The notes below the pieces were generated by a model. It was not told the DNA's origin, did not search any database, and saw only the letters and a list, made by a program, of their open reading frames with translations. A program made the translations under genes and the position numbers. Source: Occultella glacieicola (GTDB taxonomy: Bacteria > Actinomycetota > Actinomycetes > Actinomycetales > Beutenbergiaceae). Taken from it: a stretch of DNA of 64,000 nucleotides. Below are positions 50,905-57,352 of this stretch, piece after piece. How positions within the stretch are numbered: position 1 is the stretch's first letter; the number at the start of each line of letters is the position of its first letter. The stretch spans positions 1 to 64,000 of the forward strand of contig NZ_SMNA01000012.1 of NCBI RefSeq assembly GCF_004353825.1, read 5' to 3'.

Positions 50905-51540
50905 ATGACGTACACGGTGATCGCTCTGGACCGCGGCCGCACGGCCATCGGCATCGCCACGGCGAGCCGGTCGCTCGCGGTCGGCGCGACCGTGCCCGCG
51001 CTCGATCCGCGCGTCGGAGCGGCGGCCAGCCAGGCTTGGACCAACCCGCGCCTGCGGGGCCTCCTGCTGGACGCCGTACGGTTTGGACGCTCCCCCGCGG
51101 AGGCGACCGCCGCCGTCGGGCACTGGGACGACGAGCCCGAGCTCCGGCAGGTGGCCGTGCTCGCGCTGGACGGACGCGGCGCCGCCCACACCGGCCGCGC
51201 CACCACGCCGTGGCGCGGGCAGGTGGTGCGCGACGGCGTCATCGCCCTGGGCAATCTGCTCACCGGGCCCGAGGTGCTCGAGGCGATGCTGGCCGCCTTC
51301 GGCGCCCCGACCGAGCCCGACGGCGCCGGTTCGCTCGCCCGGGCGCTGCTCCGTTCGCTCGTGGCCGGGCAGGAGGCGGGCGGCGACACCCGCGGGCGGC
51401 AGAGCGCGGCGCTGCTCGTCGCCGAGGTCGCCGCCGAGGCGGTCGCCTACGATCTGCGCGTCGATGACGACGTCGACCCGCTCGCTCGCCTCGAGGACCT
51501 GGTGCGGCTGCGCGCCGCCGGGTCGACCTCCGCGCCCTGA
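50905..51540 (+). CDS. DUF1028 family (Ntn-hydrolase-like) protein
   Basis: MTYTVIA, SLAVGATVP, GGDTRGRQSAAL, DLRVDD. Confidence 0.85.
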   Translation: MTYTVIALDRGRTAIGIATASRSLAVGATVPALDPRVGAAASQAWTNPRLRGLLLDAVRFGRSPAEATAAVGHWDDEPELRQVAVLALDGRGAAHTGRATTPWRGQVVRDGVIALGNLLTGPEVLEAMLAAFGAPTEPDGAGSLARALLRSLVAGQEAGGDTRGRQSAALLVAEVAAEAVAYDLRVDDDVDPLARLEDLVRLRAAGSTSAP

Positions 51541-51664
51541 CGCGGTTCCCCAACGGGCAACGAACGTGCCCTCGGGTCCGCCTCCGCCACCCCGCACCGA
51601 ACGGGTGGGCGGGCCTAGGATCCGGGCTGACGCCGCCGTTCGGGCGGCATCCTGGAGGGCCGCG

Positions 51665-52663
51665 ATGGCTCACGAACACTCCGAACGGCCCGCGCCGGCC
51701 ACGGCCTGGCGACGCCCCTCGCGGCCGGCGGACGAGATCGACGCTCCCGGTCGGCCGCTGACTCTCGCCACCCTGCAGGGTGCGGCCGGGAACCGCGCGG
51801 TGGCCCAGCTCCTGGCCCGTGCGGGCCGCGGGCAGCCGACGCTCGCGCACCTGCCGGCGGTCCAGCGGAACGCGAAGTTCGACGAGGCAGCCCTCGGCAA
51901 GGCCTTCGACGTGGAGGGCGCCCCGGACTCGCTCGGGCTACCGCCGGAACTCGCCGCCGGGCTCGCGGCGGCCTGGGACGCGTCCTTCCCCGAGGGCAAG
52001 TCGATGGAGCAGGGCGGGATCCTGGTCAAGACCAAGGACGGCAAGTACGTCTGGCGCGCGGGCGTCGGCAAGGCCAGCGGCTCGTTCCAGGTCAACTACA
52101 AGGACGTCGGACCGGACGAGGTGCTGGTCGCCTCCGGCCACACCCACCCCTACGACACGTCGGAGGGCGGCTTCACCGACATCGCCTTCAGCGCCGGCGA
52201 CCTGTCCAACATGGTGTGGCAGCAGGAGCGGGTCAAGGTGGTGCAGTCCGGCACGGCGCGTTTCGCCGTCGCCAAGACCAGCGAGTTCGATGCGCTCGTC
52301 GCCGCCGCGGACACCCCGGAGAAGAAGACGGCGCTGCGCCTGGAGATGAACGCGCTCTGGAACACCACGTTCGCCGCCGGCGCGGCGAAGAAGCTCGCCT
52401 TCAAGATCCGGGTCGAGCAGGCGGCGCAGGCCGTCTGCGACAAGTACCACCTGGTGTACTACGCGGGCAAGGACGACACCGTCACCGCCAAGCCACAGGC
52501 CCACGTGGAGAGCGCGGCACCGACCCTGCCGCCCGAGCCTGCGAAGCTGCCACCCGTGCCCACCACGGAGCAGGCCGCGACCGACACCGCGGCGAAGGGC
52601 ACCGGCACCCCGGTGCAGCAGTCATGGCTCGGCCGGCTCTGGTCCTGGATCACGGGCGGGTGA
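51665..52663 (+). CDS. putative effector/toxin: LQxxAGNRAV leader plus JAB/MPN-like (DUF4329-like) domain
   Basis: RBS ggagg; LQGAAGNRAVAQLL..VQR; EQGG...GHTHP...FSAGD. Confidence 0.65.
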   Translation: MAHEHSERPAPATAWRRPSRPADEIDAPGRPLTLATLQGAAGNRAVAQLLARAGRGQPTLAHLPAVQRNAKFDEAALGKAFDVEGAPDSLGLPPELAAGLAAAWDASFPEGKSMEQGGILVKTKDGKYVWRAGVGKASGSFQVNYKDVGPDEVLVASGHTHPYDTSEGGFTDIAFSAGDLSNMVWQQERVKVVQSGTARFAVAKTSEFDALVAAADTPEKKTALRLEMNALWNTTFAAGAAKKLAFKIRVEQAAQAVCDKYHLVYYAGKDDTVTAKPQAHVESAAPTLPPEPAKLPPVPTTEQAATDTAAKGTGTPVQQSWLGRLWSWITGG

Positions 52664-52722
52664 GAGCGGTCGGCCCGCTACAGCTACACGATGATGGCAG
52701 GTGACGACGCGAGGAGGACAGG

Positions 52723-53118
52723 ATGGCCGATCCGGACGGTTCGACCGTGATCCGTGAGGAACGCTCGGTGGGCGACGGTGCGGCGGCCGGTGTAGGCGAG
52801 GTGACTCTCGCCGCGGGCGAGCCGGAGCGGCCGGCGCACCGCCGGGTGGCCGCGGCGAAGGCCTGGTTGGCGGTGGCTACGTCGCAGCCCGAGGGGGCCG
52901 AGACGGTGGCACTCGACGCCGCGGAGCGGGGCCTGGCCGAACTCGGTGACGCCTACCTGGCCGCCGCCGACGAGACCCTCGAGGACGACACCACCCTGAA
53001 GCACCTGGCGGCCCAGGAGTTGCGGGACCAGGGCTCCGAGCACGCGGCAACGGCGATGACTCGGGTCCTCGAGTCACGGATCGAACTCTTCGACCAGGGG
53101 CGAGGACGGGCGGGATAG
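52723..53118 (+). CDS. small acidic helical protein, candidate immunity protein
   Basis: strong RBS gaggagg; co-oriented 59 bp downstream of the putative toxin. Confidence 0.55.
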   Translation: MADPDGSTVIREERSVGDGAAAGVGEVTLAAGEPERPAHRRVAAAKAWLAVATSQPEGAETVALDAAERGLAELGDAYLAAADETLEDDTTLKHLAAQELRDQGSEHAATAMTRVLESRIELFDQGRGRAG

Positions 53119-53190
53119 CCCACGGCGCCCCGCTCGCGGCGGACCGGCGCGGCGTGAACGGAGGGGACCGCGCCTTTGGCGGCCTCCGAC

Positions 53191-53446
53191 TCGGGACCCG
53201 TGGCCCCGACCTCGTACCCGGCACTCTGACCTAGTACCCCGAGCCGTACGAGGTCAGCACGCCAGGTCCGATCTCAACGGGCCCACCCGCTTCCGCGGAA
53301 GCGGCGGTGAGATCATGCCTGGCCGCCGACGAATCGGGACCTGCTGGCCCGACCTCGCACCCGGCACTCTGACCTAGTACCCCGAGCCGTACGAGGTCAG
53401 CACGCCGGGTCCGATCTCAACGGGCCCACCCGCTTCCGCGGAAGCG
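53191..53446. repeat. imperfect direct repeat (period 143 bp) with internal hairpins and palindromes, REP/MITE-like
   Basis: 53191-53303 matches 53334-53446; each ends in CGCTTCCGCGGAAGCG and contains ctgacct..aggtcag. Confidence 0.85.
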
Positions 53447-53462
53447 CCTCGCGCGGCCGCCG

Positions 53463-54044
53463 TCACCGTTCGGACGCCGTGACGGCCCCGATCACCACGG
53501 TGGGCACGTCGGCGACATTCGCCCACCAGTGCGGGGTCTCGCACCCGTAGGTCGCCGAGTCCCCCGGCTCGAGTGTCTCCCGGCGCTCCCCATGGGCGAG
53601 CAGCAGTCGTCCGCTCTCGACCGTGATCGACTCGGTGGCCAGGTGCCGGAACGGCTGCTCCTCGTTGGAGAACCCGATCGGCAGCGTCGACCGGATCACC
53701 TGCAGGCGGGTGTCCCCGCGCGGGGTGAGCAGCTCGCGCACGACTCGCTGGCGCTCCGATCCCTCGCGAATCGGGAGCCGGTGCCGCTCCCCCGCCCGGA
53801 CCACGCTGACATCCTCCAGGGCCGGCTCGAGCAGGTCCGCCACGCCGACGCCCAGCACCGTCGCGAGCCGGCGCAGCGTGTGCAGCGACGGGTTCCCGCG
53901 CCCCCGTTCCAGCGTGCTGACCAGGCCGAGGCTGACGTCGGCGCGGTCGGCGAACTGCTGCACCGACAGGCCCAAGCGTTTGCGCCCGGCCCGCACCGCC
54001 TGCCCGATCACGCTGACCGCTAGCTCGTCGTCGCTGAGAGTCAT
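53463..54044 (-). CDS. XRE-family HTH plus cupin transcriptional regulator
   Basis: LSVQQFADRADVS..LERGRGNPSL; LEPGDS...PHWW cupin. Confidence 0.9.
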   Translation of the reverse strand: MTLSDDELAVSVIGQAVRAGRKRLGLSVQQFADRADVSLGLVSTLERGRGNPSLHTLRRLATVLGVGVADLLEPALEDVSVVRAGERHRLPIREGSERQRVVRELLTPRGDTRLQVIRSTLPIGFSNEEQPFRHLATESITVESGRLLLAHGERRETLEPGDSATYGCETPHWWANVADVPTVVIGAVTASER

Positions 54045-54175
54045 GGGGGCCATCCTGCCGTGCCGGGCCGCGATCGCCGAGCGTCCGCACGGGCGTCAGC
54101 ACGATGTAAGCGAGATGAAACCACGCCGGCCCAGGGTGGTCACGACCGAACACCCATGATGAGGAGCATCAACCC

Positions 54176-54568
54176 GTGATCATCGCCCGTATCCGCCAGA
54201 GCACCCTCGCGGTGCTGGCCGCCCTGACGCTCGCGCTGACCGCCGTCGGCACGGCAACCCCCGCCGCGCAGGCGTCCTCCAACGACCCGCCCGGTGGGGC
54301 GTACACCGGCTGCCCGCGCGGAGCCGTGTGCGTTTACCCGGATGCGGACTGGAACGGCGGCAATCCGTCGTACATCTTCTTCTCCTACGGTGCCCACCGG
54401 ATCTACAACCAGTACGGCGAGCACCGCATCTTCAACAACCAGACCGGTGGCGCCGGCGCCACCCTGTGCGCCACGAGCCACGGCACCTCCTGCCGGATCG
54501 GGGTGCTCGCGGGCGGCTACCGCGACCTCGACCTGACCCCGATCAACTCGATCCGTCTGTTCGAGTAG
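54176..54568 (+). CDS. small secreted disulfide protein (peptidase inhibitor I36 / beta-gamma crystallin-like)
   Basis: signal peptide, GCPRGAVCVY..WNG, NNQTGGA, INSIRL. Confidence 0.65.
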   Translation: MIIARIRQSTLAVLAALTLALTAVGTATPAAQASSNDPPGGAYTGCPRGAVCVYPDADWNGGNPSYIFFSYGAHRIYNQYGEHRIFNNQTGGAGATLCATSHGTSCRIGVLAGGYRDLDLTPINSIRLFE

Positions 54569-54738
54569 CCGCAGCCGCCGAGGTGAGCTCCGGTGTCTTT
54601 GGCGACGACCACCGACACGGGAGCCCTCACGGGCGTGGGGCCACACCCGCTGGGCCCCCACGGCCTTGCTGGGTCGGGGGACCGTCACTACCCTGGACGT
54701 GGCTCGGACACATCGACGGTCCGCCACGGGAGGATCCG

Positions 54739-56067
54739 ATGGGCGTGCACCAGGTCCTGAGTCGGAGCAGTTCGAGAAGCACCGTCGACCGCGAGCGCGG
54801 CCGTGCGGGCGCGCCGCACCGGGACGAGCGGGTCACTCAGCGGGCCCTGGCCGATGCCGCGTCGCTGGGTCACGCGGACGTGCACACGTTGCAGCGGACC
54901 GCCGGCAACCGGGCCGTCGCCGCCCTCCTGCGCACCCCGGTGCAACGCGTCGGCGGGCCCCCGCAGGCCGTCGGCGGCCGGAACGTCATCACGTTCAACG
55001 GCACGGACTACCAGTTCGAGAAGATGAGCATCGGCCGCCTCTCGCGGCTGCTCGACGCCATCACCGGCACCCCGGACGAGCACCGCCAGATCGGGATCGT
55101 CAGCGAGGCGCGCCGGCAGTTGCGGCGCCGGATCGAGACGAAGGGCCTGCCCAAGCCGCCGCCGGTCGATCCGACCGGAACCAAGGCGCAACGCCAGGAC
55201 CGCCGGCACAGCGAGTACGCGGCCATGCGGGAACTGAAATTCCAGTGGAGCACCTTCGTCGGCGTCCAGCTGGCCCGCGGGGTGGCGAGCCGGCCGAGCC
55301 TGGTCGCGGCCTACCGCAAGGCCGACCAGGCACTGCAGGACGCTGTCCGGGCGAAGCGATGCCTGGAGAAGCGCGTCGAGATCGAGACGCTGTTCGCCAA
55401 CATCCGGGACACCTACCGGGCCGAGCGGATCGCCGCGTCGACGGTCAAGACGGCGCTGAACCCGCGGACCGTGACGATCGAGACCGCGCTCATCAACATC
55501 CGCGACCACCTCGGCACCTCCGGCCTGCAGAACAAGACGGCCCTGAAGAAGGAGGTCGACGCCCTGAACCAGACGTTCTCCGGCCTCAGGTTCAAGGTCG
55601 TGCGGATCCTCGACCTGCGGGACGGTTTCGACCATCTCACGGCCGACGTGATCGACCTGGCCGAGCGTGCCGCGAACCTGAAGCTCGCCGGGAAGCCGAC
55701 CGGAGCCTCCGGCCTGAGCCGGTACTACGGCGCCCACGACGGTCACAATCAGGTGATCACGAACGCGAGCCCGCTGATCCTGGTCCCGCTGAGCAACTCG
55801 GCGGCCATCGCCAAGGGCACGAACGTCATCACGGCCGTCCAGCACGGTGACCAGCTGGCCGTGGCCGCGAAGACCCACGCCAACAGCGTCACCATCATCG
55901 GGACCGGGGACAAGCAGCAGTTCCACATCCGGCTGTCCCAGGGAACCACCCAGATCCGGTTGGAGACGATCGTCACCACCCAGTCGGTCCCGCACCCGGA
56001 CGATGCGAGCGCACCGAAGAAGAAGCTGCACCTCATCGATTTCAAGCAGATCCAGTTCGGGCACTGA
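54739..56067 (+). CDS. putative effector with an LQRTAGNRAV leader and an unknown basic C-terminal region
   Basis: RBS ggagg; LQRTAGNRAVAALL..VQR; GC3-biased codons show it is coding. Confidence 0.65.
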   Translation: MGVHQVLSRSSSRSTVDRERGRAGAPHRDERVTQRALADAASLGHADVHTLQRTAGNRAVAALLRTPVQRVGGPPQAVGGRNVITFNGTDYQFEKMSIGRLSRLLDAITGTPDEHRQIGIVSEARRQLRRRIETKGLPKPPPVDPTGTKAQRQDRRHSEYAAMRELKFQWSTFVGVQLARGVASRPSLVAAYRKADQALQDAVRAKRCLEKRVEIETLFANIRDTYRAERIAASTVKTALNPRTVTIETALINIRDHLGTSGLQNKTALKKEVDALNQTFSGLRFKVVRILDLRDGFDHLTADVIDLAERAANLKLAGKPTGASGLSRYYGAHDGHNQVITNASPLILVPLSNSAAIAKGTNVITAVQHGDQLAVAAKTHANSVTIIGTGDKQQFHIRLSQGTTQIRLETIVTTQSVPHPDDASAPKKKLHLIDFKQIQFGH

Positions 56068-56089: not shown

Positions 56090-56308
56090 TCAGGCCCGGG
56101 GTTGGACCGTCCCCACCACCACGGTCCGGACCGGCACGCCGTCGACCGTGTCGGGCAGGTCATGGGCGTCGTCGGCGGTGCGCAGGTTCACCCGGACCCC
56201 GTGGCCGTCCGGCACGCGCACCAGGCCGACGCCGACGATCCCGTCCCGGTCGCCGAACTCGGCGCGCACGCGTTCCTTGGCGGCCCGGGCGGCCTCGAGG
56301 TCGCTCAT
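56090..56308 (-). CDS. small protein resembling a protease pro/N-terminal domain
   Basis: GIVGVGL..GVRVNL..LPDTVDGVPVRTVVVG; ATGA overlap with the upstream protease. Confidence 0.65.
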   Translation of the reverse strand: MSDLEAARAAKERVRAEFGDRDGIVGVGLVRVPDGHGVRVNLRTADDAHDLPDTVDGVPVRTVVVGTVQPRA

Positions 56309-57282
56309 CGCGAGCCGCGGACCAGGCTGGCGTCGAGGGCGGTCAGCACCGCCTCGATCTGGTTCAGGTAGGTCAGGCCGGTGCCATTCGTGCCGCCGGT
56401 CTCGCTGCCGGCGAACAGCAGCCCGACTGCGGCGGCGTCGTCCGGGCGGTAGACGAGCGACCCGCTGTCGCCGCCCTGGGAGAACGGCCCGGCCGTGGTG
56501 GACTCCACCTCGATCTGGTCGTCGAAGGTGAGCTGGCCGAGGCCCTCGCCGTAGTCGATCACGATCCCGTCCAGTTCGATGGCGCTCACCCGACCGTCGG
56601 TGACGCCGGTGGTGCGGCCGATCTTCTGCACCGGCTCGTCGCCCTCGACCGTGGTCGTGCCGGTCAGCGTCCCGGCGGGGTAGGTCGGGTCGAACTCGAC
56701 GTCCTCCAGCGAGGCGAGGGCGGCGTCGACCGTCGCGGCTCGGCCGGCCTCCAACGCCACCACGGCGGCCAGGGCGCCGATCCGGTCCTGCGGGTAGCGG
56801 CCTCCGTCGGCCGGGCCCGGTTGCAGCACCGGGTCGCCGAGCCGCGCCTGCGGCGACCCCGCGAGAACGTGGAAGTTCGACAGGACGTACGGATCGCCGT
56901 CGGGCCGGGTGACGAACGCGCCGAGCGTGCCCGCCGTGACGTCGCGGTGGCCGATCGAGAGGCCCGGCCGCAGCGGGCGGACCCGGCCCTGCTCCCCCAC
57001 CGTTGGCGCGGTGGGTTCGGTGAGCGCCCGGACCCGTCCGACCGCCCGCACGTCCGCGTCCGGACCGAGCTCGGCGGCGAGGTCCTCCGCGACCGCCAGT
57101 ACCCGGTCGTCGTGGTGGTCGTAGCGCACCGCCACCCCGTAATCGGCCCCGCCGCGCGGCGCGATGCCGACGGCGAACGGCGCCAGCCCGGGCGTCGCGA
57201 ACGCGCCGGCCGCGCTCGCGAACCGGTCGCCGACGGACGCGATGACCTGTCTCTTGAGTGCACGTGCGTCATTGAGGTCCAT
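56305..57282 (-). CDS. trypsin-like (S1, Nal1-like) serine protease without a signal peptide
   Basis: GTLGAFV, LSNFHVL (His), VDAAL (Asp), KIGRTTG, GDSGS (Ser). Confidence 0.8.
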   Translation of the reverse strand: MDLNDARALKRQVIASVGDRFASAAGAFATPGLAPFAVGIAPRGGADYGVAVRYDHHDDRVLAVAEDLAAELGPDADVRAVGRVRALTEPTAPTVGEQGRVRPLRPGLSIGHRDVTAGTLGAFVTRPDGDPYVLSNFHVLAGSPQARLGDPVLQPGPADGGRYPQDRIGALAAVVALEAGRAATVDAALASLEDVEFDPTYPAGTLTGTTTVEGDEPVQKIGRTTGVTDGRVSAIELDGIVIDYGEGLGQLTFDDQIEVESTTAGPFSQGGDSGSLVYRPDDAAAVGLLFAGSETGGTNGTGLTYLNQIEAVLTALDASLVRGSR

Positions 57283-57352
57283 GGCGTCCAGTCTGCGCCC
57301 CGCCTCCGACATCCGCGCCCGGGGCTACCGGCACCGGAGCGGCTTCTCGGCG

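Follow-up and report, generated by a model that had tools for sequence, protein, structure and literature searches.

Two open reading frames (ORFs) in the 64,000-nt window analysed here, positions 1 to 64,000 of contig NZ_SMNA01000012.1 (C3:1-64000) of Occultella glacieicola, encode proteins with unrelated bodies behind a common N-terminal leader, which, as judged from sequence, is probably an address label that loads these proteins into a contractile injection system (CIS). The leader is real, widespread, and apparently undescribed; the proteins that it marks are associated with one CIS subtype, and a promoter element goes with them. That the leader marks CIS cargo is very likely, and the overall explanation, in which ORF1 and ORF2 are orphan genes for cargo (effectors) of the only CIS of this genome, encoded on another contig (C11), and in which the scattered cargo genes are co-regulated with its operon, is likely, though somewhat less so. 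The features that carry this explanation are the following:

51665..52663, + strand: ORF1, ATG start, 332 amino acids; leader, JAB/JAMM-fold payload, Pro/Thr linker, and C-terminal amphipathic helix; candidate CIS cargo
51773..51814, + strand: core of the ORF1 leader, LQGAAGNRAVAQLL, residues 37-50; modelled as two short helices
51860..51868, + strand: VQR of ORF1, residues 66-68; the conserved body begins directly after it
54739..56067, + strand: ORF2, ATG start, 442 amino acids; leader and a payload without known family; candidate CIS cargo
54889..54930, + strand: core of the ORF2 leader, LQRTAGNRAVAALL, residues 51-64
54940..54948, + strand: VQR of ORF2, residues 68-70

Each gene is preceded by a GGAGG ribosome-binding site, and recomputation returned both frames, both motif positions, and both VQR positions as they had been given in the original prediction, which was made from this DNA and proposed a portable leader on two otherwise unrelated proteins. 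The leader is made up of a disordered Arg/Ala/Pro stretch, a helical hairpin LQRxAGNxAVxxL, and then [VL]QR. The 11-residue pattern common to ORF1 and ORF2 was seen twice among the 4,817 called genes, against ~1e-6 expected, and a looser leader pattern occurred 8 times in the called genes of the genome, against 0.05 expected; the two bodies after VQR gave no alignment (best E 5.2). Lysine accounts for 7.6% of the ORF1 body and 5.9% of the ORF2 body but 0% of the leaders and 1.3% of residues genome-wide, confirming that the bodies are Lys-rich by the standard of this genome; as for the low-complexity start that had been described as rich in Arg, Ala, and Ser, Arg and Ala are abundant in both proteins and Ser in ORF2 only. 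Both N-termini are hydrophilic and largely disordered and, by eye, have no hydrophobic stretch, in agreement with the predicted lack of a Sec signal. Neither protein matched eCIS_core (DUF4157) of Pfam, and the leader matched none of the NCBIfam models, its best match to PDB sequences being at E 0.23.

The delivery machinery was predicted to be encoded outside the window, and the candidate for it, a CIS, is indeed encoded on another contig. No CIS gene was present among the genes called in the window, and searches for tube, sheath, and DUF4157 matched only contig C11, leaving the window free of DUF4157, sheath, tube, and baseplate genes, as had been noted. The genes around ORF1 and ORF2 are DUF1028, HTH-cupin, I36-like, and protease-like genes, with no small DUF4157 or sheath gene flanking. 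The genome of the window (G000; 5.34 Mb, 100% complete, 71% GC) has a single complete CIS cluster, at C11:~165,500-188,800. It begins with a CisA-like gene, a small LuxR, a DUF11/PD40 protein, Pvc16_N, a WHD-AAA+ ATPase of the Pvc15 type adjoining Pvc16_N, and a 250-residue eCIS_core (DUF4157) protein with an intact HExxH, which adjoins the sheath gene; it continues with the sheath, a tube, DUF6760, a 1,055-residue low-complexity protein, a second tube, CIS_tube, and a VgrG-like gene, and ends with gp25, baseplate J, Tail_P2_I, a zinc-ribbon fibre, and a BTAD/AAA regulator. The cluster is of an actinobacterial kind, and its gene set is that of Streptomyces type IId; this label and "CisA-like" are our assumption, based on comparing the gene order with the Streptomyces papers (PMC10020575).

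Pattern and hidden Markov model searches of all six frames identified 11 leaders in G000. One is in the small DUF4157 protein, the sole eCIS_core match in the genome; nine are on intact orphans, and the eleventh (C17; L014:2657-4302) is cut just past the hairpin by an IS256-family element. The bodies of the ten intact proteins gave no cross-match at E<=0.01. Other carriers matched Endonuclea_NS_2 (C1), VanY (C22), and SH3 (C18) of Pfam, and inspection by eye added a protein with an HExxH motif (C17) and a papain-like one with Cys...His (C23). A SUFU-family gene (L008:7242-8060), a family that often serves as a toxin immunity protein, is divergent from the leader gene at C18:449941-451968. The C-terminus of the small DUF4157 protein has three VQREGEEEE repeats.

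The leader reaches far beyond this genome. A 32-position profile of it, run against 1.84 billion 50%-clusters, matched at least 2,485 of them at E<=1e-3. Among the best 150 of these 2,485, the motif started at a median of residue 39 (5-95%: 16-79) and occurred twice in 40, and 101 bodies fell into 86 BLAST groups, which shows great variability of the C-termini. The original prediction of a ~70-residue portable leader on swappable payloads is supported, as none of its three refutations that could be checked by computation came true: G000 has a complete CIS cluster, the carriers vary at their C-termini, and the leader is strongly enriched in genomes with CIS, as described below. The attribution to an extracellular system may be wrong. 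Of 103 sampled carriers of >=150 residues, 10 had eCIS_core and 84 had no Pfam match at 1e-4; the other matches were zeta toxin with ADP-ribosyltransferase, RNase, PT-TG, PG-binding, DUF6782, deaminase, and HEAT. Because ~90% of the sampled leader proteins lack DUF4157, predictors based on DUF4157 and on distance from the cluster would miss them. A degenerate-pattern scan of GTDB genomes gave at least 123 loci, of which 80 are named, mostly in Actinomycetota of many orders, with several in Chloroflexota, and also in Ca. Methanoperedens, an archaeon of 48% GC with 8 profile matches and three CIS tubes. Pattern matches in Paraburkholderia and a spirochaete were rejected, being unconfirmed by the profile and in genomes without a tube. 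In archaeal and Chloroflexota-like carriers, the hairpin is succeeded by a second recurrent motif, QAKL.VG.P.D.YE.EADR.A..V, which in other carriers stands after DUF4157 (L070, L149-L152, L168, L169, L178, L228, L237). Locus L098 is on a contig of 70% GC labelled Melainabacteria, where a G000-like CIS cluster adjoins a gene combining the leader with DUF4157; the contig may be misbinned or transferred.

Across genomes, the leader was enriched where CIS genes were present, as the original prediction required. In a sample of the order (150 genomes of >=90% completeness, G000 excluded, with gp19-type tubes as the CIS mark), the leader (E<1e-3) was found in 7 of 26 tube-positive genomes, a class that overcounts CIS because the tube family also matches prophages, and in 0 of 124 tube-negative ones; five weak matches at E 0.002-0.007 (G104, G008, G018, G069, G082; four tube-negative) were discarded as shadow-frame or non-motif. 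A phylum sample of 300 genomes gave 11 of 23 Pvc16-positive genomes (10 of 21 without the unpublished G294, positive for both, and G237, positive for Pvc16 only) versus 2 of 277, these two being G362, which has a sheath, two tubes, DUF4157, and a decayed cluster, and G384. Furthermore, in one large genus (g69, 81 genomes), the leader was carried by 42 of 56 CIS-positive genomes versus 0 of 25, and three congeners all had Pvc16 and 5-7 leaders each. These counts bear on the possibility that the link to CIS is indirect, the leader being used by a different export route, such as type VII or vesicles, or representing a generic high-GC low-complexity motif. G384, with a convincing leader gene and no CIS genes found, speaks for such a possibility, but CIS-negative high-GC genomes carry the leader in 0/124, 1/277 (with G362 counted as CIS-bearing), and 0/25, the archaeon with CIS tubes has its copies at 48% GC, and leader genes have a promoter palindrome, described below, in common with CIS promoters; this possibility is accordingly regarded as very improbable.

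The association is restricted to one CIS subtype. In g69, the leader was present in 40 of 45 genomes with a full-length G000-like sheath, in 0 of 8 with the Tme-type cluster (PMC11126660) only, and in 2 of 3 of the double-sheath type. Among 52 other CIS-candidate genomes, it was present in 16 of 20 with a sheath match at E<=1e-170, 2 of 11 at 1e-129 to 1e-153, 2 of 13 with weaker matches, and 1 of 8 with no sheath match. When 64 hand-picked genomes were sorted by their AAA+ ATPase, 22 of 30 with a G000-like one (E<=1e-100; 5 of the 8 negatives in this class had been picked as negatives), 2 of 27 with a weaker one, and 2 of 7 with none found carried the leader. The discordant genomes, namely G472 and G505, which combine another sheath type with a G000-like AAA and have the leader, and G442, which combines a G000-like sheath with a weak AAA only and lacks it, suggest that the leader follows the AAA+ rather than the sheath; G024 and G362 were dropped from this comparison, as both clusters are decayed. 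Direct reading of the leader by the AAA+ ATPase may be proposed, at slightly less than an even chance. A complex prediction for the ATPase (alignment A4) and the leader (A2) gave a score of 0.00, with the mark at 0.32, and was counted neither for nor against binding.

Alternatively, the hairpin could dock on the tube initiator or on the small, Sle2-like DUF4157 protein rather than on the AAA+, the DUF4157 protein supplying in trans what fused effectors carry in cis and tethering cargo to the baseplate or tube. Sle1, a cargo of SLP of Streptomyces lividans, provides a precedent, since Sle2 binds SlpT2 as well as Sle1's N-terminal region (PMC13277306), and G000 has 10 leader genes without DUF4157 and, encoded next to the sheath gene, a single small DUF4157 protein, in which the hairpin (H41-52 and H54-63 in the model) directly precedes DUF4157. 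However, DUF4157 was dispensable for loading in AlgoCIS (bioRxiv 10.64898/2026.05.27.728243), the leader tracks the AAA clade in the discordant genomes, and the predicted local distance difference test (pLDDT) value of the hairpin, 73-74 versus 93-98 in the DUF4157 core, does not suggest tight packing, so such docking is considered unlikely. A fold search of the small DUF4157 model gave weak zincin matches only (best E 0.44). In G473, a 981-residue coiled-coil protein and a 223-residue DUF4157 protein, both encoded divergently from the sheath gene and Sle1/Sle2-like by synteny and architecture, both carry the leader. In two Streptomyces-type clusters (L185 and L191), the CisA-like gene occurs in tandem, in two and three copies.

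The promoter element is a 14-bp palindrome, TGCCCG-WW-CGGGCA (CIS box), found upstream of CIS and leader genes; it was defined on G000 alone, and other genomes then served as the test. The C11 cluster has four sites with 0-1 mismatch, three of which are intergenic, before the DUF11, DUF4157, and sheath genes (167700, 174162, and 175026). With <=2 mismatches, the box lies upstream of 7 of the 11 leader genes of G000 versus 1.5% of 4,801 gene upstreams, and the site of ORF1 is as follows:

51546..51559, no strand: CIS box of ORF1, 2 mismatches, 119 nt upstream of ORF1; candidate site for the cluster regulator

Among GTDB loci, the box was found at 20 of 70 leader loci versus 4 of 278 control windows, after five chance or fragmentary loci had been excluded, with five more uncounted for lack of upstream DNA or of a readable match. 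It was found at 18 of 21 order-level loci, including 11 of 14 orphans, two being orthologues of G000 genes. Pooled outside G000, 38 of 91 leader genes had it, compared with 2 of 93 upstreams of non-leader genes at the same loci, and most sites were 170-245 nt ahead of the LQ codons. No box was seen in L186, L187, and L190, three of the ten leader-bearing cluster regions of the Streptomyces type. The 231 sites with <=2 mismatches in G000 include many before unrelated genes, so single sites mean little; others precede the genes of a haem peroxidase, of the BTAD regulator of the cluster itself, and, as a perfect site on C21, of a DUF7507 protein. The palindrome is a candidate operator of a dispersed CIS regulon. 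A wider proposal, to which we give an even chance, is that CIS of this actinobacterial type combine a portable, sequence-defined loading signal read by the AAA+ with a palindrome that unites scattered cargo, spare fibres, and a second sheath locus in one regulon.

A box with 1 mismatch is also located before a second, divergent sheath-like gene (Phage_sheath_1C; C5:1-2955, - strand; L252:6-2955), after which two further genes run off the contig end, possibly representing a second tail-like locus. One with 2 mismatches precedes an orphan zinc-ribbon gene (C23:180323-182392, - strand; L253:6327-8393), whose product shares its N-terminal Pfam set with the CIS fibre; the gene is followed by one for an M23 peptidase, and its product is a candidate spare tail fibre.

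Several observations weigh against the explanation of ORF1 and ORF2 as orphan CIS cargo. The Fisher p-values of the co-occurrence, 2e-6 (order), 3e-12 (phylum), and 3e-11 (genus), overstate the association because kin are not independent, and in the large samples scoring covered only 25-95 candidates of each genome. As G000-like actinobacteria supplied the sequences of the profile, detection bias may account for part of the subtype pattern. Within g69, 5 of the 45 genomes with a G000-like sheath had no leader, and G362, G384, G049, and G447 do not fit the AAA+ rule: G362 has 3 leaders beside a decayed cluster, with no AAA found, and G384 has a leader gene, with no tube, DUF4157, sheath, or AAA found in its 80 contigs (96% complete). 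G450 has one leader match, in a 57-residue frame, and no tube. A 2,247-residue DUF4157 protein of the Tme-type architecture is without the leader, which is thus not universal. From purified S. coelicolor CIS, cluster proteins only were reported by mass spectrometry (PMC10020575). Finally, ORF2 has neither a partner gene, of the kind described below for ORF1, nor a CIS box at <=2 mismatches, so its case is that of its leader.

In the proposed mechanism of loading, the cluster regulator (the small LuxR or the BTAD/AAA type) would activate the operon and, along with it, the scattered cargo genes. The disordered N-terminus and the LQRxAGNxAV hairpin would be read by the loading apparatus, with the Pvc15-like AAA+ ATPase as the most likely reader, possibly via the small DUF4157 protein as an adaptor, and the ATPase would, by analogy with Alg15 and Pvc15, unfold the cargo into the tube, from which it would be released on contraction. 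The [VL]QR would represent the leader end, as a tube anchor or a cleavage site. The ORF1 payload would be a zinc JAMM-type isopeptidase/peptidase or a nuclease toxin, restrained by its 131-residue partner. The target could be a neighbouring cell or the producer's own, since related Streptomyces CIS are reported to be intracellular (PMC10286715, PMC10020575), and by the same analogy the label "extracellular" may be wrong for this CIS.

With respect to the leader end, [VL]QR might instead be cut in trans by the DUF4157 zincin, the leader being a pro-peptide that keeps the payload inactive, which would be compatible with loading. The conserved body begins right after VQR in ORF1 and ORF2 homologues, the HExxH of DUF4157 is intact, and toxin release through autoproteolysis by a DUF4157-type domain was proposed by Zhang 2012 (PMC3482391). 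In addition, [VLIA]QR occurs within 80 residues of the hairpin in 128 of the best 150 profile matches versus ~6% by chance, but part of this is built into the profile, and a [VL]QR-type end is present in 74 of 117 pattern-found loci, among the matches listed, and hence is not obligatory. The activity of Cgo1 is independent of the metalloprotease motif (cited in PMC11297309), and the 1,055-residue low-complexity cluster protein (L005:13997-17164) has 9 [VLIA]QR repeats with no leader hairpin and no payload, for which an anchoring repeat fits equally. Such processing is therefore thought rather improbable, somewhat more so than the docking on DUF4157 considered above.

The features of the ORF1 locus are the following:

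51872..52489, + strand: JAB/MPN (JAMM) domain of ORF1, residues ~70-275; invariant E115, H159, H161, S176, and D179
52723..53118, + strand: partner gene, 131 amino acids, no known family; candidate immunity protein
53177-53303 and 53320-53446, no strand: direct repeats of 127 nt each, 92% alike; right edge of the ORF1-partner cassette

The AlphaFold2 model of ORF1 (mean pLDDT 78.6) has helices at residues 34-40 and 44-54 (pLDDT ~80) between disordered stretches, with pLDDT <50 at residues 1-9, 12-21, and 57-67, and a compact domain at 70-275. This domain has the MPN fold: the top ranks of Foldseek were all JAMM/MPN, with a best E of only 8e-3, and by VIA the MPN chains filled the top ranks, with a Z of 7.9 for Cap3 (root-mean-square deviation 3.8, 120 aligned) and 7.8 for PfJAMM1. 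The five residues, corresponding to the catalytic Glu and the HxH...S..D zinc ligands, are invariant in 16 sequences. The E...HxH...S..D arrangement is thus the same as in JAB/JAMM metallo-isopeptidases and Tox-JAB (DUF4329) toxins, although ORF1 is 14-20% identical to solved structures, its Pfam DUF4329 match is below the cut-off (15.2 versus 28.6 bits), and a dedicated partner gene without known family accompanies it. A homologue of the partner lies downstream of the JAB gene in 18 of 22 metagenome loci and, by eye, has a lipoprotein-like signal peptide in several; of the four without it, three end at or near a contig end and the fourth is a 26%-identity outlier. The partner gene product is, for these reasons, likely to be an immunity protein for the ORF1 payload. 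In the same 22 loci, the JAB domain stands behind the leader (5), DUF4157 (2), a Sec signal (2), or other N-termini, indicating that the payload has been swapped between export modules. In the two DUF4157 fusions, the junction is VIQR followed by D-K-x-F-D, the same [VI]QR junction as in ORF1, indicating that the leader stands in for the DUF4157 module. The congener G053 lacks the ORF1-partner cassette (51516-53354) at the corresponding site. The repeats at its edge contain an internal palindrome and have two weak partial copies on C11.

That the same payload is found with and without DUF4157 would also suit a history in which the orphans are DUF4157 effectors that lost this domain, the leader being kept by inertia after loading had ceased. 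Consistent with such decay, leader genes are mobile and occur patchily, the IS256-type element interrupts one copy, and G362 retains leaders beside its decayed cluster. Nevertheless, the hairpin is kept in 13 of 15 ORF1 homologues at 39-67% identity while neighbouring residues vary (of the other two, one has a mere VQ-like end and one begins at the junction), the leader is absent from all 25 CIS-less g69 genomes, and 11 of 14 orphan loci of the order-level set retain the box. There is thus a small chance that the orphans are relics, and the explanation by active CIS cargo is preferred.

The leader, by analogy, may work like the known loading sequences of extracellular contractile injection systems (eCIS), such as those of Pdp1 and Pnf of PVC, Afp18, and the N-terminal domains of Cgo1 and Cgo2 of AlgoCIS, which are read by AAA+ ATPases of the Pvc15/Alg15 type; ORF1 and ORF2 themselves are outside the DUF4157 and Sle1 families. 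Like these sequences, it is N-terminal, hydrophilic, largely disordered, and without a Sec signal, with a variable C-terminal payload behind it, and an AAA+ ATPase of this kind is also encoded in the C11 cluster. Loading in AlgoCIS requires the disordered N-terminal domain and Alg15 but not DUF4157, and the loading sequence is described as "not conserved" (bioRxiv 10.64898/2026.05.27.728243); for eCIS in general, no conserved signal was detected, and 88% of known effectors were within ten genes of the operon (PMC11297309). In contrast, the present leader has a sharply conserved hairpin and end mark, spans a phylum and reaches Chloroflexota and an archaeon, and most of its carriers are far from the cluster. 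DUF4157/eCIS_core (PVC-metallopeptidase) toxins likewise join a constant N-terminal module to a swappable toxin domain (PMC3482391; PMC8213781; PMC11297309), the leader precedes DUF4157 in many of them, and the JAB payload of ORF1 is also found behind DUF4157; however, DUF4157 is lacking in ORF1 and ORF2, and neither a DUF4157 gene nor a CIS gene is next to them, the window being on C3 and the cluster on C11. Sle1 and Sle2 belong to the same CIS subtype, with a DUF4157-less cargo of variable C-terminus, and in the syntenic G473 pair both proteins have the leader. Sle1, a coiled coil resembling a tape measure, is encoded beside the sheath gene (PMC13277306), whereas ORF1 and ORF2 are short orphans; the ORF1 model has no long coiled coil of this kind, and ORF2 gave no such match. 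The leader was not seen in the text of PMC13277306, whose supplementary alignments may show it.

In the literature searched, no description of the leader motif or the box was found; subscription journals, figures, and supplements could hold one. Cargo choice by CIS is an open question, recent papers stating that no conserved loading sequence was found, and Streptomyces type IId clusters are often without a recognisable toxin (PMC10020575). With a motif that is short and conserved, this question becomes directly testable via point mutation and fusion, and the palindrome provides a second, independent handle for CIS-linked genes. The predicted hidden effector repertoire outside clusters amounts to ~10 in this genome and at least 2,485 clusters overall. 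If the wider proposal of a portable loading signal and a palindrome-defined regulon is true, the leader and palindrome expose thousands of orphan effectors, most without a known domain, that cluster- and DUF4157-based searches overlook. The subtype restriction, the shared promoter palindrome, and the partner gene are additions to the original prediction.

ORF2 has one homologue near its length, in G530 (65%), with the similarity beginning at residue 72, and a homologue was present in 1 of 25 relatives. The G530 frame retains a diverged leader before the ORF2-like body, and the public record of this protein (P0169) begins after the leader, so start miscalls can hide leaders. The ORF2 payload had no Pfam match and no usable Atlas match for residues 71-442 or 320-442, and residues 315-442 were not found among longer proteins, which were the proteins searched. 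Just upstream of ORF2, positions 54176-54568 encode a secreted 130-residue protein with a weak peptidase-inhibitor I36 match, which is probably unrelated. On the other side, at 56090-57312 (- strand), a 72-residue gene and a gene for a 335-residue Nal1-like serine protease converge on ORF2, and the protease region is located elsewhere in the congener G053.

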